Below, in pieces: positions 1,939 through 36,394 of a stretch of 36,394 nucleotides of DNA. The position numbers and the translations under genes are program-made. Source of the DNA: a virus. Below the pieces are notes generated by a model that did not search any database, was not told the origin of the DNA, and saw only the letters and a program-made list of their open reading frames with translations. Each line of letters opens with the position of its first letter. Positions within the stretch are counted from its first letter, which is position 1. The stretch lies in IMG/VR virus record IMGVR_UViG_3300047335_000135, positions 1-36,394 of that record; one strand, written 5' to 3'.

Positions 1939-2065
1939 TTATTTTGGGCTTATGGATAAAAAACCTAAAATATCCCCTATTACAAGAATTAATCAAAATA
2001 TAAACTGTTAAAGAAACCAATAACGATATTTACAAAATTAAACAAGAATCTAAGTAGGAAAATAT

Positions 2066-2656
2066 ATGAAATATTTACGCACTCTTTCGGTAGCATGTTT
2101 GTTGCTTGTAGTGTCTTGTTCTGCTATGGATATGAAAAAACTATCCGTTGTTACTAAGCTCAAAGAACACACTTTTGATAAAAACAGTACTCATTTTTTA
2201 AAAAATAATCTCAGCAAAAGCTTAAAGAAAGATTTTCATACATCATCGTCAAACATATCTTTTGAAAAAAGCACCGAGATTAAGTCATTTGACCTTAATA
2301 AAAAGGGTAAATTTACTTCCATCCTTGCTAAAAAGTATATGAATGACAAAGTCTATATCACTCAAGATGAAAATGGTAAATACTATTGTAATGGTTCAGA
2401 AATTGCAGTAGTTACCAATGGTCCCACTGGTGCTGCCGTAGGAGCATTTGTTGGTTTTTGGGGAACGTATGTTATTTGCCATGGAGTTATATCGGGAGTC
2501 TGTCGGGTTATAGATGTTGTTGTTCCTATAGGGGGCGTTGCTGGAGGAGCTGCTCAGGCTGTTATAGTTAAATCGCTTGAACCTGCTATTGTATTAGCTT
2601 CAAAAAAAGTTGGTATAGCACTTGGTATAGCTGGAGGAGTAGGAACCCCTATTTAA
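2066..2656 (+). CDS. Putative lipoprotein with a glycine-zipper-like hydrophobic C-terminal region
   Basis: Signal peptide plus lipobox: MKYLRTLSVACLLLVVS|C. The C-terminal Gly/Ala/Val-rich stretch (GAAVGAFVGFWG...GGVAGGAAQAV...GIALGIAGGVG) resembles glycine-zipper outer-membrane lipoproteins. The RBS aggaaaa lies upstream. Confidence 0.7.
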   Translation: MKYLRTLSVACLLLVVSCSAMDMKKLSVVTKLKEHTFDKNSTHFLKNNLSKSLKKDFHTSSSNISFEKSTEIKSFDLNKKGKFTSILAKKYMNDKVYITQDENGKYYCNGSEIAVVTNGPTGAAVGAFVGFWGTYVICHGVISGVCRVIDVVVPIGGVAGGAAQAVIVKSLEPAIVLASKKVGIALGIAGGVGTPI

Positions 2657-2720
2657 TATAATTAAGTTGATTAACTCAGTTGTCGATATAATGTCGGCGA
2701 CTGAGATTAGAGGATGAAAT

Positions 2721-2939
2721 ATGTTTATGAAAAAAAGAGAATTAGTATTGCGCGTAGTCTGCATTTGGATATCATATTATATCTTTAGTTTATATTACCC
2801 AATATATTACGGAATGCTGCCCTATGATCATTGCTCTGAGAATATTAGACTTATTATGCTGATCATACTTTTTGTTATGAATATTGTTCTTATAATTATA
2901 CCACTTCAATATCATATATATCTTAAAATAACTAAATAA
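2721..2939 (+). CDS. Small integral membrane protein (2 predicted TM segments)
   Basis: Hydrophobic segments VVCIWISYYIFSLYYPIYY and LIMLIILFVMNIVLIIIPL, with the RBS gaggatgaaat upstream. Confidence 0.5.
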   Translation: MFMKKRELVLRVVCIWISYYIFSLYYPIYYGMLPYDHCSENIRLIMLIILFVMNIVLIIIPLQYHIYLKITK

Positions 2940-2991
2940 TCCCACAGCTGCGCAACTTTTAATACTAACCCTTATAACGAATTAACTTTAT

Positions 2992-3429
2992 ATGTCATGG
3001 ATAAAAACTTCAGATCAATTGCCCCCAAAAGATAGACGATTTATGGCATTAGATGCTCGGTATAATTATGACCCTCATACTATTATTGAGTTTATTGAAA
3101 AAGAAAGGGGGGCTTGTGATGATGAAGAATGCGAAGAATGTCCTGGGCATTATGTAGCACAAAAATATTGTGAAATGGATATATGTAGATGTCGAGAGCA
3201 ATATACTTTAGATGAGTTCTTATACTACTTTCCTTACTGGCAATTGTTGGAAGAGCCACCAAAGGAAATAGAAAGTTTTCACCTCTGTGGTTTTTGTAGA
3301 ATATCCGTACATGCAAAGTTTGTTTCATATTCAAAAGGATCAGATCCTAGAATATACAAAAATAGGCATATATGTGATTATTGTAGAAATCACGAGCGCA
3401 ATAGTAATTACACATTTTACGATCAATAA
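2992..3429 (+). CDS. Cys-rich hypothetical protein with a DUF551-like N-terminus
   Basis: MSWIKTSDQLPPKDRRF resembles the M-x-W-I-x-v-x-D-x-L-P start of DUF551 phage proteins (from memory). It has several CxxC pairs. The same N-terminal motif recurs in the ORF inside intron 3. Confidence 0.5.
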   Translation: MSWIKTSDQLPPKDRRFMALDARYNYDPHTIIEFIEKERGACDDEECEECPGHYVAQKYCEMDICRCREQYTLDEFLYYFPYWQLLEEPPKEIESFHLCGFCRISVHAKFVSYSKGSDPRIYKNRHICDYCRNHERNSNYTFYDQ

Positions 3430-3430
3430 T

Positions 3431-3450
3431 CCCACAACCGTGGGAATTTT
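3431..3450 (+). terminator. Weak terminator-like hairpin
   Basis: cccac-aacc-gtggg followed by aattttat. The stem is only 5 bp. Confidence 0.3.
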
Positions 3451-3645
3451 ATATCGCCTCTTCACACACCATTATTCTTAATGGTATATTCTCTCTGAGC
3501 AGTATCGAAGTGACGCTCGCTTCAACAAACCCCATCGGGCTGTATGAGTTTCGCCCACTCAACGTGCAGTATGCACATTTCTGGCTGTACAAGTCTCGCC
3601 AACTTACGTGTGTTTATGTGAAATAGCATAATGTAAGGTTTTTAC

Positions 3646-3681
3646 ATGCCTATTACAACTACAACCACATTACCTGCGCCT
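3646..3681 (+). CDS. Major capsid protein, exon 1 of 4 (MPITTTTTLPAP)
   Basis: ATG preceded by taaggt. The exon ends at T3681, which can form a U.G pair in a P1 helix: gcgccT 3676-3681 with Gggcgc 3691-3696. Joining to 4181 is in frame and gives LPAP|VQQSFSYKLL, which matches the N-terminal pattern of N4 gp56-type capsid proteins. Confidence 0.7.
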
Positions 3682-4180
3682 AAACGAGATGGGCGCGTTA
3701 AATCTTCTCTAATAGACTTGGAAACCGTAGTGGCGTTAAGTTAACCGGTGACAAGGGGCAAGATTATGAAAAGAAAATGTTCAAGCTGTAAACAGCAAAA
3801 AGAAGAAAATAAGTTTATGAAACCTGACCATAAAACATGCGAAAAATGCATTATGCGTGTTAGAAAATGGGAACGAAGAACTAAACGGTATTACTTTGGA
3901 CATCAAATATGATCAGCCTGAACGTAGCAAGCGAGAAGACTCTAGTGAATGATTGCTGTAAATACATTAGAAAGTTAAATATTTTCATAGAATGGTTGAG
4001 GGCCTGTGATCCAGATCCTAAAACTCGTCATGATATAATATGGGCTACTAATGAATTACACAAACTAGAGATGCGGTGCTCTGAACATTGTGGAAACACA
4101 GTGAGGGAAGCTCAATAAACTTCCTCGCCTAGAAAGTAGTGTGCAATAAGCACACCATAGGTCACAAAAGTAACAGATTG
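3682..4180 (+). mobile_element. Group I intron 1 in the capsid gene (499 nt)
   Basis: P1 / internal-guide pairing with a U.G pair. The conserved block aaatcttctctaatagacttggaaaccgtagtgg (3700-3733) is shared with intron 3. The shared 3' core is cctgaacgtagcaagcgagaagactc...gagatgcggtgctctgaacattg..gaaa..cagtgaggga. The intron ends ggtcacaaaagtaacagattG (omega-G at 4180). Confidence 0.75.
3766..3912 (+). CDS. Intron-1 ORF: 48-aa CxxC...CxxC zinc-ribbon-like protein
   Basis: My translation is MKRKCSSCKQQKEENKFMKPDHKTCEKCIMRVRKWERRTKRYYFGHQI. The ATG follows caaggggcaagatt, the same site where the intron-3 ORF starts. It is below the ORF-track cutoff. Confidence 0.4.
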   Translation: MKRKCSSCKQQKEENKFMKPDHKTCEKCIMRVRKWERRTKRYYFGHQI

Positions 4181-4456
4181 GTCCAACAAAGTTTCAGTTA
4201 CAAACTCTTATCGGTTCCTGTTCCAAACATGATCCATAAGATACCAGCTGAACTTAAAGTCATGCCTAGGAATGGTGGTGTTACGCTGAGAATGCGTAGA
4301 TATAATCCGTTACCAACTGCGTTAGTGCCACTTGGCAATACAGGTGTTACGCCTCCGAGTGTTAATTTGACGGCTATCGATATAGATGCCACCGTTTCAT
4401 TCTACGGTCAGTACATAATCCTTAACGAACAGGTTACTTTACAGAATCAAGACCCT
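4181..4456 (+). CDS. Major capsid protein, exon 2 of 4
   Basis: VQQSFSYKLLSVPVPNMIHKIPAELKVMPRNGGVTLRMRRYNPLPTALVPLGNTGVTPPSVNLTAIDIDATVSFYGQYIILNEQVTLQNQDP matches the conserved N-terminal half of HK97-fold / N4 gp56-type capsid proteins. The MCNKHTIGHKSNRL prefix of track ORF 4139..4477 is intron sequence. Confidence 0.85.
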
Positions 4457-5618
4457 AGACAAGCGATTGTAGCTTAACATTGACAGCGGTAAGTTTTTTC
4501 TGTAGCATAAGTAATATATTTACTTTTATGTGCGGAGAAAACATGAGAAAAGAGGAATTAATGTCATACCTTGCGGGAATAATTGATGGGGATGGAAGTT
4601 TTTCCATACTAAGAAAACAAGAAAAGAAAGACTTGTCTCCTTCATATTATCCATGCATTCAGTTTTCTAAATCATCAAATATACTTCCAAAATTATTACA
4701 TGATAACTTTGGAGGACGACTTTCTTGTGTTGATAGGAAAGAAAAAAGTGTCTTAGAGTATAAGTGGCGACTAGAAAGATCTGAGAAGTGTAGACCATTT
4801 TTAGAAGAAATAAGCCCATACTTACATATTAAGCAAGAGCAGGCTTTTGAATTGATAAGATTTATAGAAGATAATCCATTTAAGCGTGGAATAAGAGTAA
4901 CAAAAGAAGATATTTCATGCAGAGAAAACGCTAGAACTAGGGTTATGAATCTAAATGCTCGAAGGGATACCAAGTCTAAATTGAATAATTCGGTTAATTT
5001 TTCTTATAAGAGTGGTTTATTTTGGTCCTATTTGTCGGGATTATTGGATACTGACGGATCTTTTTCTATAAAGAAAGAGCGACGGGGAATTTATTCTCCT
5101 ATGGTATTGCTAAGTCTTATAAATTCTAAAGCAATCAATTTTATTAAAAACAATTGTAGTGTTGGTTCATTTTTTGTTGTTAAAGCACCACAGTTGCTTC
5201 AAAAGTTTTATTATCGTTTTGGTGTGTACAATAGAGATGAAGTTGTTGTTCTTCTAGATCAAGTAATTCCATATTTACTTCATAAAAAAAATTCTGCGGA
5301 AATCCTTAGAGATTTTTGTAATGGATATGTATCTCAGGGTGGAAGATATCTAAAGACAAAAGAGCAAGATGATTTTCGAGAAAACTGCTATCAAAGTTTG
5401 GTTAAATCAAATGGGGTCTATAAATCTCATCTAATAGACTTGGAACTCTTACCAGGCGATGCTGGAGACAACAGGGCGGAAGCAGCGGAAGCGTGCACCG
5501 TGAACGTAGTAAGCGATGAGACACCGGAAGGTGATGCGGTACTCTGAACTCTATGGAAACATAGAGAGGTAGGCTGAGAAGATCTACCCGCCAGAAATGG
5601 TCATAAAGTAACAGAATG
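4457..5618 (+). mobile_element. Group I intron 2 in the capsid gene (1162 nt), carrying a LAGLIDADG endonuclease gene
   Basis: P1 pairs agacccT (4450-4456) with Ggggtct (5413-5419), giving a U.G pair at the splice site. The guide is followed by aaatctcatctaatagacttggaa, homologous to introns 1 and 3. The 3' core is gaacgtagtaagcgatgagac...gatgcggtactctgaac, and the intron ends ggtcataaagtaacagaatG (5618). Confidence 0.8.
4543..5547 (+). CDS. LAGLIDADG homing endonuclease (double-motif, monomeric type)
   Basis: Two LAGLIDADG motifs: YLAGIIDGDGSF and YLSGLLDTDGSF. I chose the start at ATG 4543 (MRKEEL), 5 nt after ggag. The track ORF starts at 4480 with a non-ATG codon. The 3' end runs into the conserved intron core. 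Confidence 0.9.
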   Translation: MRKEELMSYLAGIIDGDGSFSILRKQEKKDLSPSYYPCIQFSKSSNILPKLLHDNFGGRLSCVDRKEKSVLEYKWRLERSEKCRPFLEEISPYLHIKQEQAFELIRFIEDNPFKRGIRVTKEDISCRENARTRVMNLNARRDTKSKLNNSVNFSYKSGLFWSYLSGLLDTDGSFSIKKERRGIYSPMVLLSLINSKAINFIKNNCSVGSFFVVKAPQLLQKFYYRFGVYNRDEVVVLLDQVIPYLLHKKNSAEILRDFCNGYVSQGGRYLKTKEQDDFRENCYQSLVKSNGVYKSHLIDLELLPGDAGDNRAEAAEACTVNVVSDETPEGDAVL

Positions 5619-5738
5619 GTTTTGAATCAGGCGGCTGAAAGGCTCGGGGTCTCATTGAGACAAACAGAGGATACGCTGACTCGTGATATGCTTGCAGCTA
5701 CAGCGGCCTTCATAAACTGTACTGCTGGTGTCAACGGT
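5619..5738 (+). CDS. Major capsid protein, exon 3 of 4
   Basis: VLNQAAERLGVSLRQTEDTLTRDMLAATAAFINCTAGVNG continues the capsid-family pattern (...DP|VL...G.q....D.ltRd.l.a.t). Both junctions are in frame. Confidence 0.85.
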
Positions 5739-6172
5739 AGAATTGTTGCCGTTGTAAAATCTTCTCTGATAGACTTGGAAACCGTAGTGGTGTTTAACTA
5801 ACCGGCGACAAGGGGCAAGATTATGGAATGGATAAAAGTAACAGATAAGACAAAAATAAGAGCAGATAGATTTTTAGTGTTACTTCCAAATGACTTAGCA
5901 AATGACCAATATTGGCCACACATAGCAAGTAGACATTTTGGAAGCAACATTGAATTCGATATTGATGAATTAGAGTCATGCTCTGGAGAATGGAGATTAT
6001 CTGACTTTGCTTATTATGCCTATCTTTATAATCAGCCTGAACGTAGCAAGCGAGAAGACTCACAGAAATGTGAGATGCGGTGCTCTGAACATTGCAGAAA
6101 TGCAGTGAGGGATAAGTAGAGAAAGTCCCCGCCAAATAGAAATTATTTGGTCACAAAAGTAACAGAAAAATG
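5739..6172 (+). mobile_element. Group I intron 3 in the capsid gene (434 nt)
   Basis: P1 pairs caacggT (5732-5738) with Gccgttg (5748-5754), giving a U.G pair. The block aaatcttctctgatagacttggaaaccgtagtgg (5757-5790) and the 3' core (6033-6112) are near-identical to intron 1. The intron ends ggtcacaaaagtaacagaaaaatG (6172). Confidence 0.8.
5823..6119 (+). CDS. Intron-3 ORF with a DUF551-like N-terminus; its 3' third overlaps the intron core
   Basis: MEWIKVTDKTKIRADRF parallels MSWIKTSDQLPPKDRRF of ORF 2992..3429. The tail QPERSKREDSQKCEMRCSEHCRNAVRDK is read-through of conserved intron RNA, so the true coding extent is uncertain. Confidence 0.4.
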   Translation: MEWIKVTDKTKIRADRFLVLLPNDLANDQYWPHIASRHFGSNIEFDIDELESCSGEWRLSDFAYYAYLYNQPERSKREDSQKCEMRCSEHCRNAVRDK

Positions 6173-6688
6173 GACAACCCTACTGAAATTCAACGACCTG
6201 ATGTTGATACGGTGGTGCGAACATTGCTTGATAACGATGCTTACACCGTATTAGATAACATACAGGGTGAAGACCGTTTCGGTACTGCTCCTGTTCGAGA
6301 TGCGTACTTTGCTCTTTGCAGTACTCAACTTACTGGTAACTTAGATGCAGTTGCTGGATTTATTCATAAGAATAACTATCCATCACCTATGAATGCGTTA
6401 CGAAGCGAGTGGGGCTCCATTGGCAACCTACGTTTCTTGATTTCTAGTATTGGTTCTGCAATTCCTTTTGCATCTGCAAATGGTAATACCGTATACAACA
6501 TATTCTGTGTTGGTATGGAAGCATATGCCTGCGTGGAACAAGATGGATATAGTGCGGCCTTTATATATCGACCACCGATATATGATGGTCCATTGGCTCT
6601 TAATGCGTCTGTTGGGTACAAGTTTGCTGAGGTCCCGCGTATCTTAAATGATGCCTGGGTAATCAATTTACGTGCAACACAAGCCTAA
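6173..6688 (+). CDS. Major capsid protein, exon 4 of 4
   Basis: DNPTEIQ...SEWGSIGNLRFLISS...VYNIFCVGMEAYACVEQDG...PLALNASVGYKFAEVPRILNDAWVINLRAT matches the C-terminal GE.G...g.RF....Vy...v.G..ay..v...g....PL....vG.K......iLn..w pattern of this capsid family. The spliced product is 315 aa. Confidence 0.9.
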   Translation, partial: DNPTEIQRPDVDTVVRTLLDNDAYTVLDNIQGEDRFGTAPVRDAYFALCSTQLTGNLDAVAGFIHKNNYPSPMNALRSEWGSIGNLRFLISSIGSAIPFASANGNTVYNIFCVGMEAYACVEQDGYSAAFIYRPPIYDGPLALNASVGYKFAEVPRILNDAWVINLRATQA

Positions 6689-6697
6689 GGAGTAACT

Positions 6698-7771
6698 ATG
6701 AATAATACTATTACTCTACAAGGTCAATTTACATCAACAGGTGCTAATATCATCATACCTATACCATCGGGTGTAAGTTGGATGAGAGTGCTTAACCAAA
6801 CAGCGCTTACGCAAGCCGCTGCCGTTTTAGGGTATGATTTCTTCTGGCAGGTAGGCATGCCTATTTCCCAGGGTGTTGTGTGGACTAAAAATGGTGGTTT
6901 AGCTAATAACTCGGTTACTGTTGGTGAACTTGCTGCTAATAATGGCTTTACTGTTATTAATACATCTATTGCTACTCCTGGTGTGTCATATGCTATTACT
7001 GGGTTTAGTGCCGCTAATCCTCCAGTTGTTCTCACAGCGACTACTCCTCTTGTGGGTCAGTTTGTACGATTGGCAAACCTCAATAACCAACCGCAATTTG
7101 CAGGTATCGATTTCCAAGTTACTGCAGTTAACCCTGGAGTAAGTTTTACACTTGGTGGTGTTAACGCCGTAGGTACTGTAGTTTCTAACGCGGGTAGTTA
7201 TAGAGTTATTCCTGTATCTCAATGGTATCCAACCCATCGAGCTATTACCTATATGTCAGCTGAAGTAACACCTGTAATCTATACTTCTGTTAGTAGTGGA
7301 TACCAAGTTGGCCAAGAAATACGTCTTAACTTCCCTGGTGGCACTCAAGTCTGGGGTAATTATGCGCTTCTTGATGGTATGCAAACAACTATTCTTGCTG
7401 TGGGTAACGCTCCTGTTATTGTAACCGGTAATGAACCTACAACACTCTTTACTATTACAGTAAATATAGATACATCAGCGTATGGCCCTTGGGCATTTGC
7501 TGGTCCTACGTACTATCCACCTGCTGCTTTAGTTCCGTTCTCTCCCGCTCAAACAACACCGATCGGTGAATATACCTCTATAGCATTACTTAATAACGTT
7601 AACATCCTCAGTGATGCAACGTTAAACACTGCATTTATAGGTATGCAACTTGGTGGTGGTCTGCGCGGAGCCGGCGCTCAAAACGCAGGACCTGCTGGAG
7701 GATTCAATACTGGTACTGGTATTGGTGACTCTATGTTCTGGATGGCTGGTAATACCTTCACGTTTTATTGA
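6698..7771 (+). CDS. Virion structural protein (putative), with two small beta-barrel-like repeats
   Basis: Strong RBS taaggagtaact. It lies immediately after the capsid gene. Segments ANPPVVLTATTPLVGQFVRLANL...FQVTAVNPGVSFTL and VTPVIYTSVSSGYQVGQEIRLNF...TTLFTITVNIDTS resemble the core of ORF 8283..8660. Confidence 0.5.
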   Translation: MNNTITLQGQFTSTGANIIIPIPSGVSWMRVLNQTALTQAAAVLGYDFFWQVGMPISQGVVWTKNGGLANNSVTVGELAANNGFTVINTSIATPGVSYAITGFSAANPPVVLTATTPLVGQFVRLANLNNQPQFAGIDFQVTAVNPGVSFTLGGVNAVGTVVSNAGSYRVIPVSQWYPTHRAITYMSAEVTPVIYTSVSSGYQVGQEIRLNFPGGTQVWGNYALLDGMQTTILAVGNAPVIVTGNEPTTLFTITVNIDTSAYGPWAFAGPTYYPPAALVPFSPAQTTPIGEYTSIALLNNVNILSDATLNTAFIGMQLGGGLRGAGAQNAGPAGGFNTGTGIGDSMFWMAGNTFTFY

Positions 7772-7777
7772 TAATGA

Positions 7778-7800
7778 GGGGGCCCTTAAGGGTCCCCTTT
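7778..7800 (+). terminator. Rho-independent terminator candidate
   Basis: gggggccc-ttaa-gggtcccc forms an 8-bp stem with one G.U pair, followed by ttt. Confidence 0.55.
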
Positions 7801-7813
7801 ACTAGGAGAGACT

Positions 7814-8266
7814 ATGTCACAAAAAGAAACAGTAGAAAAATCACACACTAATCCCCGTAATCTTACTCCATCAAAGCCAGAGCGACGATCCGGTAAAGAC
7901 TGGGCATTTGAGATGCAAAAAGATAAAGAAATGGTTCGTGGCATCTTTAGGTTCCATGAGGTTCCCGGTGGTACAATGAGTTTTGTATATAAGAAGTACC
8001 GCGATGAACCAGTACAGTCGTTTACGCTTATAGATGGCCAAGTATATAATTTACCTCTTGGTGTAGCACGCCATCTCAATAAAAACTGTTGGTATCCTGT
8101 TCATGATTATCTCATGGATGAAATGGGTAGGTTTGGCGGTCAATTTAAAATACAGAAAAAGGTGCGTCGCTGCAGCTTCCAGAGTTTGGAGTTTGTTGAT
8201 ATAGAAGATATCACGCCAGAGGGTGAAGCAACTATCTACACCGCACAGAAGATAGGTATGATGTAA
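7814..8266 (+). CDS. Hypothetical head-module protein
   Basis: 150-aa ORF with the RBS aggaga. The function is not recognised with confidence. Confidence 0.55.
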   Translation: MSQKETVEKSHTNPRNLTPSKPERRSGKDWAFEMQKDKEMVRGIFRFHEVPGGTMSFVYKKYRDEPVQSFTLIDGQVYNLPLGVARHLNKNCWYPVHDYLMDEMGRFGGQFKIQKKVRRCSFQSLEFVDIEDITPEGEATIYTAQKIGMM

Positions 8267-8282
8267 GCTTATAAGGAAAGAT

Positions 8283-8660
8283 ATGCCTGGACCAATACCG
8301 AATCCATACTATATACCATTTCCCGTATTTCTTCCTGCTATGCGTAATATAGGTGCTATTACGCAAGCAACTAATGCGCTTGTAACAACCACTTTTCCGC
8401 ATAGTTATCAAACTGGTGATATTGTGAGACTGCTTGTCCCTCAAGGATGGGGTATGGTTCAGGCTAATACACTTATAGGTGAAATAGTTGTTACGAGTCC
8501 TACGCAGTTCACTATAACTATAGACACTACTAACTTTGATGCTTTTGTAACGCCACCAAATCCATCGCCACAGGTAAATTCGGTAGCGCAAGTTATTCCT
8601 GTGGGAGAAAATAATAATAAGCTCACACAAGCCACTAGGAATGTTTTACCACCATATTAG
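8283..8660 (+). CDS. Small virion protein (putative), single beta-barrel-like domain
   Basis: TQATNALVTTTFPHSYQTGDIVRLLVPQGWGM...VVTSPTQFTITIDT is related to the repeats in ORF 6698..7771. Confidence 0.5.
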   Translation: MPGPIPNPYYIPFPVFLPAMRNIGAITQATNALVTTTFPHSYQTGDIVRLLVPQGWGMVQANTLIGEIVVTSPTQFTITIDTTNFDAFVTPPNPSPQVNSVAQVIPVGENNNKLTQATRNVLPPY

Positions 8661-8668
8661 GAGCAACT

Positions 8669-9718
8669 ATGGCAGATAGTACACTTGCAGCTATAAGAAC
8701 TAAAGTAAGGCGACTTACTCTTTCTCCATCGCCAAACCAATTATCCGATGCTGATATAGATCAATATGTTAATACGTTTATACAATACGACTTTCCTGAA
8801 CATCTAAGACTTTTTAACTTGCGCCAGAAATATACATTCTATACATCGCCAGGTGTTGATGTGTATCAATCTAATGAAATAATCAACGATCCTTTATTTG
8901 AGTTCCAACAGAACTTTCTTACTGTTCACCCACCAGTGTATGTAGACGGTGTAGAAATCAATATGACTCAGTCTGAGAGCGAATTATTTAGATGGTATCC
9001 AAAGAATAGATCGGATATGACTTTAACTATTGGTGATGGAGTAAGTACTACTTATACTGGCTTTATCAATAGTCTTAACTCACCACTAAGTCAGTTTAAT
9101 AGCCAGAATATTAATATACTGCGCAATTATGTGACGATAACTTCTGCGGATGCCGTTAATAACGCTATAGTTATGCAAGATACGCCTTATAATGGCGCAA
9201 CTGGATATCTATATCCGCCAAATACCTATCCTGACCTTACAATGCCACCTGATGCAAATAACACGATTAACTATCTTACCGGACAATATACCGTTACGTT
9301 TCCCACAGCACCTGCGGCAGGTCAAAACATCAATGCGCATGTATTTTACTATCAGCCAGCACGACCAACTATTGTTATGTATTTCCAGAATCAGTTTACT
9401 TTTAGGCCAGTGCCAGACCAGGCATATCCTGTAGATATAGAAGTGTATGTAAGGCCTACGCAGTTATTAGCCGCTGGACAATCTCCGCAATTAGAAGAGT
9501 GGTGGCAGTATATAGCTGCGATGTCGAGCAAGAAAATTCTTGAAGATCGCAGAGACACTGATAGCGTTAATAGGATCCTTCCGCTCTGCAAAGAGCAAGA
9601 GTTGTTGGTGTTACGGAGAACTATTGTACAGAACACTAATGAACGCGTTGCTACAATATATACAGACGCTTTAAATAGCAGTAGCCCAGGATATAACTGG
9701 GGACAGGGGACATTCTAA
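8669..9718 (+). CDS. Virion structural protein, possible head-tail adaptor (position-based)
   Basis: RBS taggagcaact. 349 aa, lying between the capsid genes and the tail-tube-sized genes. Confidence 0.4.
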   Translation: MADSTLAAIRTKVRRLTLSPSPNQLSDADIDQYVNTFIQYDFPEHLRLFNLRQKYTFYTSPGVDVYQSNEIINDPLFEFQQNFLTVHPPVYVDGVEINMTQSESELFRWYPKNRSDMTLTIGDGVSTTYTGFINSLNSPLSQFNSQNINILRNYVTITSADAVNNAIVMQDTPYNGATGYLYPPNTYPDLTMPPDANNTINYLTGQYTVTFPTAPAAGQNINAHVFYYQPARPTIVMYFQNQFTFRPVPDQAYPVDIEVYVRPTQLLAAGQSPQLEEWWQYIAAMSSKKILEDRRDTDSVNRILPLCKEQELLVLRRTIVQNTNERVATIYTDALNSSSPGYNWGQGTF

Positions 9719-24707: not shown

Positions 24708-24829
24708 ATACTTGAATATGTTGAGTGTCAAGTATATTTTTGATATAGTTGGATAATGATTGGCATGGTTGACTGGGATGCTCTTACTGCATCAAGGTAC
24801 GGTAATAGGAAATTTTCCTTTTGGGGATA

Positions 24830-25082
24830 GTACCCAAGCTTTTTTGGTTGCATACTGCCATGAATCCCGGAAAACGATACGGACTGAAGATGTGACAAAG
24901 CGTCACGAACTGAGAGCGGTACCCAAGCTCAAACCAAAGCGGTACCCAAGCTCAAACCAAAGCGGTACCCAAGCTCAAACCAAAGCGGTACCCAAGCTTT
25001 TTTCCCTAGAATAAAGGCTTTTTTGGGTGCATAATGCCATGAATCCCGGAAAATTGTGTATGAGTGCGTGACAAAACGTCAC
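24830..25082. repeat. Two copies of a roughly 80-nt module flanking a tandem array
   Basis: Each module contains gtacccaagctttttt (24830; 24988), the exact 19-mer tgccatgaatcccggaaaa (24856-24874; 25035-25053), and a palindrome gtgacaaaRcgtcac (24892-24906; 25068-25082). Confidence 0.85.
24916..24999. repeat. Tandem repeat, 23-bp unit gcggtacccaagctcaaaccaaa x 3.6 (iteron-like)
   Basis: Three perfect units (24916-24938, 24939-24961, 24962-24984) plus a 14-15 nt partial fourth unit, read directly. Confidence 0.95.
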
Positions 25083-25136
25083 GGGTTGAAACTTGCAACA
25101 GTTGCTGCAAAAATAAGAAATAAGAAAAGTAGGGTG

Positions 25137-25448
25137 TTAGAGAATTGAATGGGTAGTAGCATCTACCTGGCGCCAATTAGTTTTTTTGCCGACTCTATTT
25201 ATCGCGATAAATAGAGTACTTTTAACCTCGTTGATACAAAATGTTCCGCAATATGCTATGTCACTTTCTGTGGGGTCTCTATCTAATATTATAAGGTGGG
25301 GAGCGGCTGTATAATAATCTAATGATGCTTTATATGGCTTAATACATGCAAAGTTAAATGTCTTTTTATGGCCGCGCTCTTTTCTAGTTTTATTCCATTC
25401 TCTTAATCGTACCTTGGTATGAAATACGATAATTTTGTTTTTATTCAC
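25137..25448 (-). CDS. Hypothetical protein, first gene of the leftward operon
   Basis: 103-aa ORF with no motif recognised. Confidence 0.5.
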   Translation of the reverse strand: MNKNKIIVFHTKVRLREWNKTRKERGHKKTFNFACIKPYKASLDYYTAAPHLIILDRDPTESDIAYCGTFCINEVKSTLFIAINRVGKKTNWRQVDATTHSIL

Positions 25449-25510
25449 AGAATTCCCTATATTTTAGAAGTGCGTTGGCCGTAGTGCCGCGACGGACTGT
25501 ATCGGTAAAA

Positions 25511-28180: not shown

Positions 28181-28645
28181 ATGATTCTGTTGGGCATAGA
28201 TCCAGGAACGCAGTACTTGGGCTTCTCTCTATTAACTGACCCAAAGAAGCCAAAACTATTACAGTATGGTTGCCTTAAGCTCAATCCCAAATCGAGTATC
28301 CCTGATCGCCTGGAAGAGATACATACGTTCTTTGCTGCTAAGATACTGAGCGATGAAGTAACGCATATGGCTATAGAGACACCATTTTTGGGTAAGAACA
28401 TACAATCATTTATGAAGCTATGCTATGTGCGTGGCATACTCTATCTCCTAGCAACACAAAACGATTTGGTGCTGTACGAATACTCACCGACAGAAGTAAA
28501 GAAGGCTATATGTACCTTTGGTGGTGCTCCTAAAGAACAAGTAGCACGCGTATTATGGCATATGTTTAAGGGGCTAGAGTCAGATCTTCGTGATGATATA
28601 ACGGATGCTATAGCAGTAGGGTTGTGCGGATTATGGAAGAAGTAG
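28181..28645 (+). CDS. ruvC: RuvC-type Holliday junction resolvase
   Basis: MILLGIDPGTQYLGF (Asp), MAIETPF (Glu), K..YVRG, P.EVKKA..G.G.A.KEQV and DDITDAIAVG (Asp/Asp) reproduce the bacterial RuvC catalytic tetrad and spacing. Confidence 0.85.
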   Translation: MILLGIDPGTQYLGFSLLTDPKKPKLLQYGCLKLNPKSSIPDRLEEIHTFFAAKILSDEVTHMAIETPFLGKNIQSFMKLCYVRGILYLLATQNDLVLYEYSPTEVKKAICTFGGAPKEQVARVLWHMFKGLESDLRDDITDAIAVGLCGLWKK

Positions 28646-29985
28646 GAAGACTAGAAGCGCGTATTAAGTTAGATAGGTTTAAGCCACGGGAGTTTCAAAT
28701 ACCTCTTATCAATGCATTAGAGAGAGATAAAAAGAAACGTTTGTTAGCAATATGGCCTCGTCGTGCCGGCAAGGATATATGCGCACTAAACATTATGCTT
28801 AGAGCAGCATTGCGTCAAGTGGGTAACTATTTCTATCTACTACCGACTGGTGTTCAAGCTCGGCGTACGGTGTTTGAAGGTATGACGATTGATGGTATGC
28901 AGTTCTTGGACTATATACCTGTAGAGCTTATAGAGAAAAAGAACATAGCTGAAATGAAACTTGTTCTCATTAACGGATCACAAATCCAGTTTGCTGGTAG
29001 CGATTCGTATGATAGGCTCATGGGTATCAGTGCCAATGGCATTATATTTAGTGAATATGCTTTGCAGGACCCTCGTGCCTATTCTTATTTGCGTCCAGCG
29101 CTCACAGCTGCTGATGCTTGGGCTCTGTTCATATCAACACCCCGCGGCCACAATCACCTTTATACTATGTATCAGGTAGCTAAAGAATCTCCAGACTGGT
29201 TCTGTTCGCATCTGACCGTGGAAGATACTAAGCACATATCTCTTTTCGATATACAAAAAGAAATATCTTTAGGAGAAATCTCCGAGGATCTGTCCAAGCA
29301 GGAATACTACACATCGTTTGACATGGGTATACAGGGCTCATATTACATGAAGTACATAGATAGACTGCGGTTAAATAATCAGATAACTGATGTGCCATGG
29401 GAGCCAAGTCATCCAGTGTATTCAAGTTGGGATATAGGTGTACGAGATAGTACCTCGATCATATTATTTCAGGTTATTGGTCAGACCGTAAGAATTTTAC
29501 AGGTATATGAAAAGAATAAAGAAGGACTTGAGCATTACATCAACTTTATAAAGTCACAGCCCTATACGTATGCTAAGCATTTTGCTCCTCACGATATGAA
29601 GCAAATGGAGTTTGGTTCAGGTATGACCCGTTGGGCCAAGGCTTATGATCTTGGGGTTAACTTCACTGTTGTAGATAACATTCCCATTGTTGATGGTATT
29701 GAGGTAGTGCGCAGTGTATTACCACGTTGCTGGTTTAATGAAGCTACAACAAGGCCGCTTATTAGGGCTTTAGAGAACTATCGACAAGAGTTTGATACCA
29801 AACACAATGTGTATAAAGGATCACCAGTGCATGACCAATACAGCCACTTTGCAGATAGTTTTAGGTATCTAGCAGTTGGATTGCGCCATGCACAAAAAAG
29901 CACATCGCCTGAAGAACTAGAGCGTAGATATCATGAAGCAACTTATGGCGATCAGCAGTTTACTGGATTTTTTAGGCAACAATAA
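28624..29985 (+). CDS. terL: Terminase large subunit
   Basis: Walker A-like WPRRAGKD, then ...LINGSQIQFAGSD (ATPase coupling region), and a C-terminal RNase H-like nuclease segment (SWDIGVRDSTSIILFQV...HDM...D.F). The start is GTG 28624 or ATG 28633 and overlaps the ruvC end. Confidence 0.8.
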   Translation: MRIMEEVGRLEARIKLDRFKPREFQIPLINALERDKKKRLLAIWPRRAGKDICALNIMLRAALRQVGNYFYLLPTGVQARRTVFEGMTIDGMQFLDYIPVELIEKKNIAEMKLVLINGSQIQFAGSDSYDRLMGISANGIIFSEYALQDPRAYSYLRPALTAADAWALFISTPRGHNHLYTMYQVAKESPDWFCSHLTVEDTKHISLFDIQKEISLGEISEDLSKQEYYTSFDMGIQGSYYMKYIDRLRLNNQITDVPWEPSHPVYSSWDIGVRDSTSIILFQVIGQTVRILQVYEKNKEGLEHYINFIKSQPYTYAKHFAPHDMKQMEFGSGMTRWAKAYDLGVNFTVVDNIPIVDGIEVVRSVLPRCWFNEATTRPLIRALENYRQEFDTKHNVYKGSPVHDQYSHFADSFRYLAVGLRHAQKSTSPEELERRYHEATYGDQQFTGFFRQQ

Positions 29986-30013
29986 TTGACATGCCAATAT
30001 GCCGTGATATATT
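29986..30013 (+). promoter_or_regulatory. Sigma70-like promoter candidate directly after the terL stop
   Basis: TTGACA (29986-29991), a 16-nt spacer, then TATATT (30008-30013). Confidence 0.5.
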
Positions 30014-30025
30014 TATGCCAACATT

Positions 30026-30255
30026 GCTCATGTATCTACCTTAGATATATATAATAGCTCACTGAGAGTGAAAGGCTCATAATATTTATAAATAGATGGT
30101 CATGAATTTTTATTAATGCTTAATTAAGCGCTCAACAGCAACCCATGAAATGCTCACGTGGTTTAAAGAATTAGCGCAATGTTGAATGCTCATATCATAG
30201 AATTGCAATAAAGGCTCAAGTTTTATAATCATTATAAATACTCACAGAAGGCTCA
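30026..30255 (+). repeat. Strand-asymmetric cluster of the GCTCA motif (8 exact copies plus 1 ACTCA) in the leader of the TnpB-like gene
   Basis: GCTCA starts at 30026, 30057, 30075, 30130, 30152, 30188, 30214 and 30251, with ACTCA at 30240. The contexts are WRGCTCAYR, three of them as aaggctca. I saw no TGAGC in this interval. Confidence 0.85.
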
Positions 30256-30265
30256 CGTTAACTAA

Positions 30266-31375
30266 ATGATACAAGTACAACTGAAACTTAAACTTACACG
30301 CAAACAAGAAACTATGATCCAAGAATGGTTTCCTATTCTAACGTCCATATGGAACTGGGCGATAAAGAAGATAGAATGGGATGCTGCTGATCATATCTAT
30401 TACAATAAGTTTGAGTTTGTTAATATGTTGGCTGGTCATAATAAGCGCTTGGGTATACCATCACATACTATTCAGGCAATGCTCAAAGATGCACATACCA
30501 CATGGCAGCGTTGTTTTAAGAAACTAGCAAGAGCACCACGACTTAAGGGGCAAAGAAATAGGCTCACATCCGTATCTTTTCCTGATCCTATAAAAAAAGC
30601 TCATGTTAATAGTACATCAATTGAATTGCCTTATTTGGGCAAACTTAAGTTTCATAAACAAATAATACCTTCGGGCAATATTAAATGTGCCCGTATAGTA
30701 AAGCGTGCTTCGGGTTTTTATCTTTGTTTGTTTATAGATGCTCAATCAAACAGAATTGCTCATAAGGGCTGTGAAGCGATAGGCATACAGCTCAGCGTTG
30801 ATGGTCGTATGGCATTATCTAATGGTGATATTATTCAACGCGAAGCACAGTTGCAAAAACATCTCAATAGATTGGCTCAAGCACAGCGCGGTGGTAATAA
30901 AAAGCTAGTAGCTCGATTGCATGAACGCATAGCCAATTGCCGTAAAGACGCCAATCATAAACTGTCTCGCAAGATGGTAGAGCAGTATGATACGATAGTG
31001 GTTAATAAAGATGACCTCAAGCAAAGAGCTCGTAATCTAGGCCTTTTGGTTGCTGATTCTGCCAATTACCAGCTACGTTTGATGATGTGTTATAAGAGTG
31101 AGAATAATGATAGAAAATATATAGAAGTTGCATCCAACACTAGTACTGCTGGTGCTACAATTTCCACCGTGACATGTTCAGTATGTAGATCACCTTCGGG
31201 TCCTGCATCATTGACATGTCTGAAGGTAAGGGAATGGGTTTGTGTGAGCTGTGGAACTCTTCATGATCGCGATGTAAATACCGCGAAAAACACACTTATT
31301 TCCGGGCTTGGAGCGAGCCACGAGAGCGATGCGAGTCGCGTCCGAAATTTATTGACTAATCGTTATGAGCTATAA
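30266..31375 (+). CDS. tnpB: TnpB-like (IS200/IS605 OrfB family) protein with the RuvC-I Asp replaced by Gln; predicted nuclease-inactive
   Basis: TnpB landmarks are present: VQLKLKLTRKQETMIQEWF..IWNWAI, AIGIQLSVDGRMALSNGD (RuvC-I position is Q), HERIANCRKDANHKLSRKMVEQYDTIVVNKDDLK (RuvC-II region), a CSVC...CVSC zinc ribbon, and HDRDVNTAKN (RuvC-III). Confidence 0.8.
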   Translation: MIQVQLKLKLTRKQETMIQEWFPILTSIWNWAIKKIEWDAADHIYYNKFEFVNMLAGHNKRLGIPSHTIQAMLKDAHTTWQRCFKKLARAPRLKGQRNRLTSVSFPDPIKKAHVNSTSIELPYLGKLKFHKQIIPSGNIKCARIVKRASGFYLCLFIDAQSNRIAHKGCEAIGIQLSVDGRMALSNGDIIQREAQLQKHLNRLAQAQRGGNKKLVARLHERIANCRKDANHKLSRKMVEQYDTIVVNKDDLKQRARNLGLLVADSANYQLRLMMCYKSENNDRKYIEVASNTSTAGATISTVTCSVCRSPSGPASLTCLKVREWVCVSCGTLHDRDVNTAKNTLISGLGASHESDASRVRNLLTNRYEL

Positions 31376-31641
31376 GCATGAGTTCAACCTTAATAGTTTC
31401 TATACCATGAGTTCGTCTTTGTAGTTAGTGATCATGGGCTCGTGCTTGAAGAAAAATAGCGGGGCTGGCAAAACAGTTCATATGGATGGCATAATCTCAT
31501 AAAATATGTCTAAATAGCTCACTCACGATCATTGAATTCAGTTAAACTCATAGATAGAAATAGGCTCATATAACCTATCCGCTCATTCAAGACATTTGTC
31601 ATATTAAGATCGCAGATCGGGTTTGTAGAAATAGGAAATAA
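31376..31641 (+). other. 266-nt non-coding tail of the TnpB-like gene; candidate omega/guide RNA region
   Basis: No ORF is present. It holds three CATGRGYTCR repeats (31377, 31406, 31433) and further GCTCA copies (31517, 31564, 31581). In canonical TnpB loci the omega RNA overlaps the 3' end of the gene and extends downstream. Confidence 0.35.
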
Positions 31642-31779
31642 ATGGATGAAATTAGAATTAGTGTTTTTTTACCTCAAGAACTCTACGAAATATTGAGAAG
31701 AATGGCGTTTGAACAAAGGATAACGCAAAAAGAAATAATCGTAGCGGCTTTAACAGAGTACATCAACAACGGCAATTAG
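31642..31779 (+). CDS. Ribbon-helix-helix (CopG/Arc-like) protein, 45 aa
   Basis: My translation is MDEIRISVFLPQELYEILRRMAFEQRITQKEIIVAALTEYINNGN, a textbook strand-helix-helix. The RBS aggaaataa lies upstream. Below the track cutoff. Confidence 0.6.
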   Translation: MDEIRISVFLPQELYEILRRMAFEQRITQKEIIVAALTEYINNGN

Positions 31780-31896: not shown

Positions 31897-31994
31897 TACC
31901 CGGTAGCTCAGCGGTAGAGTGATTGCCAGTAAAACGAGATTATTAGTTGTAATTTTGGGCAATTGGGACGTTGGTTCGAATCCAACTCGGGTTT
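31897..31994 (+). tRNA. tRNA-like gene with about 25 extra nt in the anticodon arm; identity undetermined
   Basis: The acceptor tacccgg / tcgggtt has a 1:72 mismatch. The D arm is gctc-agcggta-gagt and the T arm is gttgg-ttcgaat-ccaac. The anticodon stem halves attgc (31922-31926) and gcaat (31959-31963) are separated by 32 nt instead of 7. Confidence 0.55.
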
Positions 31995-32079: not shown

Positions 32080-32153
32080 GACCTGTTAGTTTATTGGTAG
32101 AACCCTGGGTTTTCAGCCCAGAGGAAAAGGTTCGATTCCTTTACAGGTTGCCA
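32080..32153 (+). tRNA. tRNA-Glu (anticodon UUC) with encoded CCA
   Basis: Folded manually. Acceptor gacctgt / acaggtt, D arm gttt-attggta-gaac, anticodon arm ctggg-ttTTCag-cccag, variable agga, T arm aaagg-ttcgatt-ccttt, discriminator g, then cca. Confidence 0.75.
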
Positions 32154-32248: not shown

Positions 32249-34333
32249 ATGATATTTCCCCAACTCATGCCCGAATACGCGGATGAGAAAGATCGTCCAC
32301 TCTTATACCGAATGACAGACTTCTACTCTGAAAGCATTACGCTTAACCAGTCCTTTTGGGCTGAAGCAGACATAGATAATAGATTTATCTCAGGTGAAGT
32401 TAATCTCTGGTCGGAACTCTACCCAAATGTTCCTGCCAATCGTCGCAGGTTATTCAATTTTAATCGCATACGACGCGTTATTAACATGATCTCTGGCCAT
32501 CAGCGGCGTACGCGCAAGTCTATGATTGCTGTTCCCATAGAAAATGCTGATGATGCTACTGCAGATCAATTCACAAAAGTACTGATGCATGTAGCCCATC
32601 AAGATGGCATTCTTGAGACCATATCTGATGCCTTTTATGGGTCTCTTACAACAGGTATGACATTGCTTGAAGTATGGAACGATTTCCGTAAAGATCCCGT
32701 ATCAGGAACCCTACGAGTCAATAAATGTGAATATAATGAGTTTCTTATAGATCCCTATTTCCGCAAGCCAGATCTATCTGATTGCCGTGGTATATGGAAA
32801 CGCTCCTATATGACCAAGCGTGAGATCATTTCACTCATGCCTGACAAAGAGGATGAGATCATGTCCATTATGGTCAATGCTGCAGCTCCATCCAAGGATG
32901 CCAAGTTCCAATACATGCCAGAAAACTATGGTTGGTCATATAAAAATCTCATGGCCTATGACGAGTTCCATTACCAAGACTTTAGGCAACAAAAACTACT
33001 GGTAGATTCGCAAACAGGTGAAACAACTGAATGGCGCTCACAAGATGAAGATCGTTTGAAGGAGTTTCTACGCACATACCCACAAGTAACTGTTATAGAA
33101 ACAACGATTCCTACCGTCAAAGTAGGCATAGTTGTACAAGGCAAGGTGCTCTACGACGGCCCCAATACGCTTGGCATAGATCGTTATCCATTTGTTCCAG
33201 TACTGACCTACTATAATCCACAGTCACCTTATTATTATTTGCGCATACAAGGCGTGGTACGAGGACTCCGTGATGCTCAGTATCTTTATAGCAGACGTAA
33301 GGTTATAGAACTTGATATACTCGAGTCACAAATAAACTCAGGTTGGATCTACAAAGAGAACGCGCTTGTTAACCCTAAAGATGTTTTCCTGTCTAATCAG
33401 GGTCGTGGATTGGCGCTGAAGGACTCAGCTTTGATGACTGATGTGATGCAGATCCCAGCACCACAGATTCCTCCTTCTATGTTCCAATTATCTGAAGGCC
33501 TAGCTAACGAAATTAATCAGATCTCGGGCGTGAACGAAGAACTTTTGGGCAGCGCGATGGACGACAAAGCAGGCGTATTATCTATGCTCCGACAAGGTGC
33601 AGGACTTACAACATTACAACCTTTATTTGATCAATTAGACCAGTCTCAGAAGTTATTGGGCCGCATTCTTATTGAAGCAGTTCAATCTAATTACACTCCC
33701 GGCAAGATACAAAAGATCCTTAAGGAACAACCCTCTGATCAATTCTACAACAAGGCTTTTGGTATCTATGACTGTGTGGTTGAAGATGGCCTTAACACTG
33801 CCACCCAAAAACAGATGGAATTTGCACAACTCTTACAGCTACGTGAACTGGGTGTGCCTATACCGGACGAGTCGCTTGTTGAATCGGCTACTCTACAAAA
33901 TAAGAAAAAACTCATTGAAATCATGCAGAAGAATCAACAGCAGCAGCAACAGATGCAGCAGATGCAGATGCAGGCCGCTATCCAAGAACAACAGGCCCGT
34001 ACTGAACTTGCGCAAGCACGAACAGTTGCCGATCAGGGGCTTGGCGTAGAGCGTATGAGCAGAGTACAAGAGAACCAAGCATTGGCTACTGAGCGTAAGG
34101 CACAAGCAGAGCGTGATCACTATGCATCGCTATTAGACTTCGTTAAAGCACTTAAAGAACTAGAAGGCATTGATATTGCCAACTTAGGAAATTTGATCTC
34201 TCTTGCTAAAGGTTTGTCTATGGAAAGTGAACGCGGTGTACAGCATAATCCATCTCAGGCTGCTCCGAAGCGGGCACCTGCAAACAAACAAGAGAGATCG
34301 TTAGATGTATTGCAGGGATTAACTCCTGCGTAG
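32249..34333 (+). CDS. Portal protein (size and position-based)
   Basis: 694 aa and the first large head gene after terL. It has a Gln-rich coiled C-terminal barrel-like segment (QKNQQQQQQMQQMQMQAAIQEQQ). Confidence 0.6.
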   Translation: MIFPQLMPEYADEKDRPLLYRMTDFYSESITLNQSFWAEADIDNRFISGEVNLWSELYPNVPANRRRLFNFNRIRRVINMISGHQRRTRKSMIAVPIENADDATADQFTKVLMHVAHQDGILETISDAFYGSLTTGMTLLEVWNDFRKDPVSGTLRVNKCEYNEFLIDPYFRKPDLSDCRGIWKRSYMTKREIISLMPDKEDEIMSIMVNAAAPSKDAKFQYMPENYGWSYKNLMAYDEFHYQDFRQQKLLVDSQTGETTEWRSQDEDRLKEFLRTYPQVTVIETTIPTVKVGIVVQGKVLYDGPNTLGIDRYPFVPVLTYYNPQSPYYYLRIQGVVRGLRDAQYLYSRRKVIELDILESQINSGWIYKENALVNPKDVFLSNQGRGLALKDSALMTDVMQIPAPQIPPSMFQLSEGLANEINQISGVNEELLGSAMDDKAGVLSMLRQGAGLTTLQPLFDQLDQSQKLLGRILIEAVQSNYTPGKIQKILKEQPSDQFYNKAFGIYDCVVEDGLNTATQKQMEFAQLLQLRELGVPIPDESLVESATLQNKKKLIEIMQKNQQQQQQMQQMQMQAAIQEQQARTELAQARTVADQGLGVERMSRVQENQALATERKAQAERDHYASLLDFVKALKELEGIDIANLGNLISLAKGLSMESERGVQHNPSQAAPKRAPANKQERSLDVLQGLTPA

Positions 34334-36130: not shown

Positions 36131-36394
36131 ATGGAAGAACAAAATTTAGATCAAGTAATAGAAAATGTAGCTGACAATGGAGAGCAACTTGAGCAGTCTG
36201 CACCGGTGGATGTTGCAACACAGCCCACGCCACCTGCACAAGCAAATTCATACGAACAAAACCTTAAACGACTCAGAGAAAAAGCTGAGCGAACAGATTA
36301 TTTGGAAAGAGAACTTGCCCGAGTCATGCAAGAACAACAGCGGTCCAACACTGTATCTCCTGATGATGGCCCTAGTTTTGCTGACGATGATCTT
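36131..36394 (+). CDS. Scaffolding-like protein, N-terminal part (continues at base 128 after circularisation)
   Basis: ATG 36131 follows aggagaagt. The segment is 264 nt, or 88 whole codons to the window end. Base 128 is in the same frame as ORF 35..586. Confidence 0.5.
   Translation, partial: MEEQNLDQVIENVADNGEQLEQSAPVDVATQPTPPAQANSYEQNLKRLREKAERTDYLERELARVMQEQQRSNTVSPDDGPSFADDDL
36268..36394. repeat. Terminal direct repeat copy 2, identical to 1..127
   Basis: Same 127-nt string as the window start. Confidence 0.95.

Follow-up and report, generated by a model that had tools for sequence, protein, structure and literature searches.

A one-strand array of the pentamer GCTCA around a phage-borne tnpB gene with an altered RuvC-I motif

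The DNA analysed here (hereafter the window) is the full 36,394 nt of IMG/VR record IMGVR_UViG_3300047335_000135, and the subject of this report is an array of the pentamer GCTCA that surrounds a gene for a TnpB protein. The window is a complete circular podophage genome: its ends (1-127 and 36268-36394) are identical over 127 nt, so that the assembly closes into a circular phage genome of 36,267 bp, and the contig of a related phage, L001, passes through the junction uninterrupted. The gene order at the locus is large terminase (terL, 28624-29985), a TnpB-like open reading frame (ORF; 30266-31375, plus strand, 369 aa, OrfB_IS605 with a Cas12f1-like zinc ribbon), a 45-aa ribbon-helix-helix (RHH) gene (31642-31779, plus strand), two tRNA-like genes, and a P22-like portal gene (32249-34333); the genome further encodes RuvC, an Erf-type annealing protein, and an HNH endonuclease. 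No close relative was found among isolated phages, whose TnpB homologues are at most 30% identical. The stretch from 29986 to 31641 (the island) is a domesticated TnpB element of the IS200/IS605 insertion sequence (IS) type, without TnpA or a recognisable left end, whose right end and putative omega-RNA tail appear to be kept in AU-rich form.

Three phage variants share the position of the island, namely the window, L001 (~84% nucleotide identity; also recovered as L064, L065, and L069), and L068 (~90%; grouped with the partial contig L066). A further contig, L002, consists of phage sequence 96% identical to window 29872-30992 (L002 1-1152, 40% GC) joined abruptly, in the middle of the TnpB ORF, to 62%-GC bacterial DNA (1153-9455), and is in all likelihood a chimera of the assembly. 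When viral and metagenome contigs were scanned for further relatives and a 24-nt leader pattern was searched, only the same three variants came back. A strong sigma-70-type promoter is predicted for the TnpB leader at 29986-30013 (plus strand; TTGACA, 16 nt, TATATT, TG upstream; 11 of 12 matches), starting directly after the terL stop codon, in a block that is near-invariant in the three phage variants and L002. A second promoter-like site lies at 31477-31505 (plus strand; TTCATA, 17 nt, TAAAAT; 9 of 12 matches), where the consensus match is weak and support comes mainly from conservation of the block in all three phages; it is presumed to be the promoter of the RHH-tRNA-portal block. At both sites, the first GCTCA follows the -10 hexamer by 12-13 nt.

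In the leader array (30026-30255, plus strand), GCTCA starts at 30026, 30057, 30075, 30130, 30152, 30188, 30214, and 30251, and two decayed copies on the same strand read GGTCA (30098) and ACTCA (30240), with spacings of 11-36 nt and a mode of 22-23 nt. The 5-nt core is perfect in 8 of the 10 leader units, the remainder of each unit being barely alignable, and the flanks hold little information (at most 0.7 bits per position) except for A-richness at -4 to -2. Across 30026-30879, 15 GCTCA stand against 0 TGAGC, and no TGAGC occurs in the leader or anywhere within 29530-31244, confirming the strand asymmetry noticed in a first-pass annotation of this DNA, all of whose GCTCA positions were also correct on recounting in the window. 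The whole window contains 58 GCTCA and 30 TGAGC, of which 40 and 28 lie outside the island; since this background is ~1.1 per kb on either strand, the array is local and reflects no compositional or genome-wide strand effect. The 280-nt leader holds 8 copies against 0.32 expected from the remaining genome (Poisson 2e-9), its dinucleotide shuffles (n = 5000) gave a mean of 0.36 and a maximum of 4, and GCTCA headed the over-represented 5-mers of the leader as well as those of the ORF's 5' half. A compositional or strand-wide origin was thus ruled out by background counts and shuffles together, and chance or composition is excluded as the cause of the array.

Seven more copies lie within the ORF on the plus strand (30481, 30562, 30599, 30740, 30758, 30790, 30875). 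Their expected number was obtained by resampling synonymous codons under an unchanged amino-acid sequence, with codon frequencies taken either from the phage or from the gene itself, and came to 3.3 (3.1 in the first 625 nt and ~0.2 beyond) versus the 7 observed (p = 0.009). The enrichment that the first-pass annotation saw here is therefore real as a modest excess, and is mostly driven by the protein, because the protein sequence itself gives 3.3 GCTCA; the empty 3' half of the ORF, which it had also remarked upon, is expected, because resampling places only ~0.2 copies there. An in-ORF motif excess needs to be judged against the protein sequence, and half of the excess here vanishes that way.

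The RHH-leader array (31517-31585, plus strand) comprises GCTCA at 31517, 31564, and 31581 and ACTCA at 31521 and 31546, with spacings of 17-18 nt and with every copy downstream of the second promoter-like site. Over all sub-arrays, spacing ranges from 11 to 55 nt, with modes at 17-18 and 22-23 nt; pairs at 17-18 nt are present in each sub-array of each phage, and those at 18 nt, which recur in each sub-array, include the in-ORF pair 30740/30758 common to all three phages. A word shared between the sequences upstream and downstream of the gene, previously given as a 10-mer, was found again and extends to the 11-mer AATAGCTCACT (30053 and 31513).

Judged by its OrfB_IS605 core and C-terminal zinc-ribbon (TNB) domain, the ORF is a genuine IS200/IS605-family TnpB (Pfam PF01385, 32 bits, and PF07282, 41.8 bits, both past cut-offs), with matches to TnpB entries of the PDB at E = 1e-12 to 1e-17 and 1359 homologues. 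RuvC-I reads GIQLSV in the three phage variants versus GIDPGF in homologues of ~55% identity, and GIDxGF is found in every other homologue examined. The first-pass annotation had missed this loss of the RuvC-I Asp. The Gln175 codon (30788-30790, plus strand) stands at the position of the RuvC-I catalytic Asp, aligning to GvDLG of solved or designed TnpB proteins, and the altered RuvC-I codons themselves generate the GCTCA at 30790. In an AlphaFold2 model (pLDDT 67.7), Q175 lies on the strand (170-176) that normally bears the Asp, and D179 lies in the next loop. The phage protein is probably nuclease-dead. Its RuvC-III HDRD motif and zinc finger are intact, and the lineage is a previously undescribed phage-borne TnpB with a single catalytic change; the canonical RuvC-II Glu is Lys across the whole TnpB clade, including active-looking multi-copy elements (SKDN versus VEDL of ISDra2). 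The invariant E220 (LHERI) may be a relocated RuvC-II Glu, a known complication of the TnpB family (PMC10705468). Among the three phage variants dN/dS is 0.08-0.11, so that the protein is under strong purifying selection and hence functional; dS is lower in the 3' half of the ORF (0.32 versus 0.74, window versus L001), which fits constraint from an overlapping RNA (omega-RNA).

Among the closest homologues outside the phage lineage is P0003 (54% identity, RuvC-I intact), on a phage-like contig (L079, 2819-2968; JGI Ga0181352_1000502). This tnpB gene lacks the right-end tail and ~20 C-terminal residues, and is preceded by three 31-nt direct repeats (GATTCYTATCGCGYGTGCGYGGGRGTC) with unrelated 27-30-nt spacers between them, an arrangement reminiscent of a small CRISPR-like array placed ahead of a tnpB gene.

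The ends of clade elements were defined from multi-copy genomes (Waddliaceae, Acidoferrales) and a left-end profile. The left end consists of TGAAC or TGAGC, ~11 nt, GCGCAA(T/C), a CCCC...GGGG hairpin, and TCAAG, and the right end of GGAAT, a hairpin, and AGGTTCAA. In 25 family copies, the left-end flank is TGAAC in 21 and TGAGC in 4 (all from one genome), with one further copy (L015) having TGAAT; this conserved pentamer outside the element is the transposase target site, and is thus the target-adjacent motif (TAM) of the clade. GCTCA is the exact reverse complement of TGAGC and lies one base off the right-end terminal GTTCA, and by this comparison the array motif coincides with the pentamer that the TnpB family reads in duplex DNA. 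The chance that a top-ranking 5-mer equals either TAM variant in either orientation is ~4 in 1024. Covariation of TGAGC with GCAAC as base pairing was considered and found not to be strict, two TGAAC copies also having GCAAC. The residues expected to read the TAM (phage RNRLTS) resemble those of TGAGC-type copies (T, A, or I), versus N in most TGAAC-type copies; they allowed no conclusion on TAM type, since S and G are found at this place too and the phage residues at other positions agree with TGAAC-type copies.

The right-end relic, corresponding to the 3' part of a putative omega-RNA scaffold, spans 31218-31387 (plus strand, start approximate) and carries an AU-rich terminal hairpin. Its terminus, GAGTTCAA, ends at 31387. 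The family consensus folds into a terminal hairpin with compensatory changes and a GGA/UUC closing helix, and the phage right ends retain hairpin and closing helix (here GAA/UUC) with AU-rich pairs, changes on both sides, and a 12-nt insertion. Three CATGRGYTCR motifs previously seen downstream of the gene were confirmed (31377-31442, plus strand; starts 31377, 31406, and 31433), the first being the right-end terminus and the others terminus-like repeats. Within these motifs stands TGAGT or TGGGC, each nearly complementary to the array motif, and all three phages conserve the first two motifs.

Directly 3' of the terminus, the family boundary places a putative guide segment at 31388-31407 (plus strand), which varies among the three phages. 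No match to it at ≤4 mismatches in 16 nt was found anywhere in the window. Self-targeting was scanned with three candidate registers and seven offsets in the window and in the TAM-adjacent sequences of the three phages, and no match was found in the registers and offsets scanned, so guide-directed self-targeting was set aside. Since no guide match accompanies the sites, the GCTCA copies are not ordinary TnpB targets. The suggestion of a TAM-like motif made in the first-pass annotation therefore holds as far as the identity with the TGAGC form of the clade TAM, and fails in that no site is followed by guide-matching sequence.

TnpB is present in single copy in the phage genome, and no left-end relic was hit in any phage leader by nhmmer with a 16-member left-end profile. 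A GCGCAAT 7-mer at 30174 was rejected as a left-end trace, being neither conserved in L001 nor preceded by TGARC at the expected distance. Nothing resembling tnpA was found in the leader by tblastn and blastn against family TnpA and left end, and a decayed tnpA gene was rejected. The start-proximal copy, AGGCTCAAC, has counterparts no more than 60 nt ahead of the start codon in the non-phage loci L011 and L070 and in phages L001 and L068: GAGGCTCAACC lies directly before the L011 start codon, TTAGGCTCAAC 15 nt before the L070 start, and AAAGGCTCAACC 5 nt before the start in L001 and L068. The 9-mer is found at that place in 2 of 28 other loci versus 0.006 expected. The L011 right-end terminus, GGGGAGGCTCA, is tandemly duplicated. 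From the shared 9-mer and the L011 terminus, we infer that the array motif derives from IS-end sequence. A transposon-end relic had been among the roles first offered, and this part of the idea gains from the recurrence of AGGCTCAAC in two non-phage family members and from the GCTCA-type right end of one, without any left-end or tnpA relic. L011 itself (regions 2990-3000 and 4085-4112) is an ordinary family IS copy in a Desulfuromonadales metagenome-assembled genome, and its duplicated GCTCA-type right end reads GGGGAGGCTCAG GGGAGGCTCAAT. With 6 GCTCA and 0 TGAGC, this element parallels the phage arrays on a small scale.

The array was compared across relatives. The tnpB leader holds 8 GCTCA in the window, 8 in L001, 6 in L068, and 9 in L002, where the one extra copy sits inside a 30-nt insertion; the RHH leader holds 3, 3, and 5 in the window, L001, and L068, L002 not covering this region. 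In the three phages together, the 11 RHH-leader copies all follow the conserved promoter block, with 0 in the 100-135 nt upstream of it, and those of L001 and L068 are mostly at positions non-homologous to the window's. Phage leaders differ by large indels, and some copies are non-homologous or lie in lineage-specific insertions (L002, L068); in L068, ~150 nt with 4-5 copies are deleted. Decay is seen in both directions, GGTCA at 30098 aligning to a GCTCA of L001 and an ACTCA of L001 aligning to GCTCA 30188. All three phages share the in-ORF copies 30599, 30740, and 30758. Compared in pairs within the tnpB leader only, they retain 4-5 of 6-8 sites, versus fewer than 1 expected from the leader's average identity.

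No array was found in 34 homologue loci from genomes and 8 from viruses or metagenomes, all with intact GIDxGF, nor in the TnpB-less relative L063, which has 6 GCTCA in 13 kb; among the loci compared, the array is specific to the RuvC-I-mutant phage lineage. L063 has the same order of terL, RHH, and portal with different cargo, and its RHH orthologue (49% identical, upstream of the portal gene) has a short, repeat-free leader. The terL-portal gap is a variable cargo slot, occupied by TnpB here and by unrelated ORFs, one of 453 aa, in L063 (7345-10700), and homing-type or cargo genes elsewhere in the phage group include an HNH endonuclease (window 4480-5547) and a LAGLIDADG ORF (L001 19751-20395). 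Between RHH and portal in the window, the first tRNA-like gene (31897-31994; Rfam 41 bits, without an ARAGORN call) has normal acceptor, D, and T arms and ~27 extra nt in the anticodon region, making it intron-containing or disrupted, and the second is a normal tRNA-Glu(UUC) (32080-32153).

Structured leader RNA, one of the roles offered at first, was not supported: Rfam families gave only the two tRNA matches (gathering threshold and E ≤ 5), the leader folding energy was no better than that of shuffles (z = +0.82), and motif accessibility in predicted ensembles was neutral and not above control GC-rich windows. A structured RNA, riboswitch, or intron was rejected on these three tests, and nothing plausible was found among small ORFs of the leader. 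An origin of replication was likewise rejected, there being no GC-skew inflection at the island, and the initiator-site role suggested before is not supported. In all three phages, GCUCAUAA and UUAUGAGC are complementary over 8 nt.

A link had also been drawn between the array and a 23-bp tandem repeat (24915-24998), in which GCTCA is part of a longer unit with the core GGTACCCAAGCT. This core also occurs nearby without CA, and the surrounding stretch (24768-25458) has no aligned counterpart in L001; given the longer unit and the missing counterpart, the link is probably coincidental, and we do not retain it. Around the tandem repeat (24820-25090), two copies of a ~75-nt segment each end in a GTGAC-N5-GTCAC palindrome (~24893 and ~25069); they sit in a divergent early-gene control region and look like operators.

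The reading that we favour, with a probability of roughly 0.35, is that the array derives from IS ends and serves as docking sites for the resident, probably dead, TnpB ribonucleoprotein (RNP). In the phage lineage, a short IS-end sequence would have been tandemly amplified in units of 17-18 and 22-23 nt, and its 5-nt core retained as the sole DNA sequence that the TnpB family reads directly, which is the proposed reason for its retention. The GCTCA copies would be guide-independent, low-affinity docking sites for the nuclease-dead RNP, and many weak sites just past two promoters could exert feedback on tnpB and on the RHH-tRNA-portal transcript. In a variant of this scheme, GCUCA copies in RNA would mimic the end of the omega-RNA scaffold (GGUUCA; GGCUCA in one relative) and titrate TnpB on its own mRNA. 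Stated in full, a phage-domesticated dead TnpB would have ringed its own gene and the neighbouring late-gene promoter with clade-TAM arrays as guide-independent docking or titration sites, whether as DNA TAMs or RNA mimics, a logic undescribed for TnpB, TldR, or Cas12; in this full form, the proposal is doubtful.

Several points weigh against docking by TnpB. In each of the three phages, guide matching beside the 16-18 TAM sites was at background (12-nt mean, contiguous seed), so binding would have to be TAM-only; such binding is weak and transient in Cas9 and Cas12 relatives, and we know of no regulatory role for it. The TAMs (TGAGC) are on the template strand, so that RNA polymerase would meet a bound RNP from the TAM-distal side, which is the weak roadblock orientation in Cas12 systems. 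TGAGC is the minority form of the TAM, from one metagenome-assembled genome, and the TAM was read from the clade and not from the phage protein. Nuclease loss is judged from one residue, with D179 four residues on and a model pLDDT of only 68. The recurrent 17-18-nt pairs suggest a dimeric binder rather than monomeric TnpB. A three-way column test including the conserved flanks detected no extra conservation of the motif columns, and with three related genomes only, selection on the array is no more than suggested.

An RHH binding site was also among the roles first suggested, and the array could be an operator array for the adjacent 45-aa RHH repressor or another phage DNA-binding protein, repressing tnpB and autoregulating the RHH-tRNA-portal operon, with boxes bound cooperatively and the TAM likeness a coincidence or a by-product of seeding from IS-end sequence; we hold this to be unlikely. 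The RHH gene lies directly downstream of the island, is 98-100% conserved in the three array-bearing phages, and encodes a protein matching Arc-like and CopG-like repressor families, whose predicted DNA-facing strand would carry Arg5 versus Gly in the array-less L063 orthologue. The arrays' start 12-13 nt past the -10 hexamer at both promoter-like sites and the recurrence of 17-18-nt pairs in each sub-array of each phage suit operators, and the RHH proteins omega of pSM19035 (heptad repeats) and ParG of TP228 (ACTC boxes) are known to use short asymmetric boxes in direct arrays. The likeness extends to the placing of repeated boxes in promoter regions near a small RHH gene, and ParG ACTC overlaps (G/A)CTCA. 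In omega and ParG, however, boxes are contiguous, with a 7-8 bp period and both orientations, and minimal RHH arrays known have contiguous boxes at 7-11 bp, whereas the array here is irregular (11-55 bp) and in one orientation; a two-fold symmetric RHH dimer gives no cause for 18 of 18 sites pointing the same way. The orthologue in L063 has its short leader without a repeat array, and an exact match to the clade TAM would need chance at ~0.4-3%. Uniform orientation is instead what tandem duplication produces, and the array may be a decaying, non-functional relic, in which slippage or aberrant transposase events amplified an IS-end piece before the three phages diverged and the copies now drift, a reading we consider improbable. 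L011 offers a small version of such an event, with its duplicated GCTCA-type right end and one copy just before the start codon, and the decayed copies (GGTCA 30098; ACTCA in L001), the ~150 nt with 4-5 copies lost from L068, and the column test without excess conservation all fit drift. Mere drift sits poorly with a core perfect in 8 of 10 leader units beside barely alignable flanks, with site retention far above the leader's average identity, with new copies gained in separate lineages, with the same core in two arrays of different unit length, and with the in-ORF excess (p = 0.009).

An element acting in RNA, with GCUCA in two 5' untranslated regions and the early coding region either bound by an RNA-binding protein or paired with UUAUGAGCUAU of the omega-RNA tail, controlling translation or stability, seems to us quite unlikely. 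All copies are sense and past the two promoter-like sites, with the stretch ahead of the second promoter free of them, and a leader no more structured than its shuffles (z = +0.8) is expected of a single-stranded platform. In accessibility, nevertheless, the motif positions do not exceed control GC-rich windows, there is no match to a known RNA family, and no candidate RNA-binding protein was identified; the GCUCAUAA/UUAUGAGC complementarity, while present in all three phages, is of a length (8 nt) easily matched by chance given 18 cores in AT-rich flanks. That a packaging (pac), replication (iteron), or Chi-like polar element happens to adjoin TnpB is very unlikely. The location directly after terL, the 22-23-bp spacing typical of iterons in part of the array, and the strict polarity suited to a Chi-like or translocase signal would all agree with it, but the array is absent from TnpB-less L063 with the same terL-RHH-portal layout, the island shows no GC-skew inflection, no initiator gene or AT-rich unwinding element came to light, the homology of the start-proximal copy is to IS and not to phage sequence, and the tandem-repeat GCTCA cluster has no aligned counterpart in L001.

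Among the closest known systems is TldR (TnpB-like nuclease-dead repressor; Wiegand et al., PMC10705468), a TnpB homologue with deteriorated RuvC that has lost TnpA and the transposon context. The phage TnpB shares these features, as well as syntenic fixation in phage genomes, a putative omega-RNA-like tail, and purifying selection; deterioration of RuvC together with a new conserved neighbourhood is seen here in D175Q and in the terL/TnpB/RHH-tRNA-portal synteny of the window, L001, and L068. Unlike TldR, the phage TnpB has one canonical catalytic change beyond those of its clade, with zinc finger and RuvC-III intact, its putative guide varies from phage to phage and has no TAM-flanked target in the phage genome, and an array of the protein's own TAM around its gene has not been described for any TldR locus. 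In the text of the TldR paper, autoregulation is mentioned only for Cas9, where a long-form tracrRNA binds the effector's own promoter without cleavage (PMC10705468). The scheme proposed here resembles that case in that an RNA-guided effector would feed back on its own promoter without cutting, and differs from it in that a partial guide match operates there and none is seen here. Compared with the TAM of IS200/IS605 TnpB, the motif is alike in being 5 nt long and identical to the TGAGC variant on the bottom strand; the TAM, however, acts singly beside a guide-matched target, whereas at least 18 copies occur here without a guide match, inverted relative to the gene, in leaders and coding sequence.

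The dense same-strand arrays of a pentamer mirroring the clade TAM around tnpB are what is unusual at this locus, and they hint at a possible new kind of self-regulation. Cas12 descends from TnpB, and TnpB has on repeated occasions given rise to RNA-guided repressors (TldR). If the RHH protein binds the arrays instead, a phage repressor co-opting transposon-end sequence would be documented. If the arrays dock TnpB, RNA-guided effectors could exploit recognition of the TAM or of the protospacer-adjacent motif (PAM) alone for regulation, and the phage would offer a simple testable system with two promoters, one protein, and one small RHH; TAM-array docking would then be an intermediate step on the way from transposon nuclease to transcription factor.

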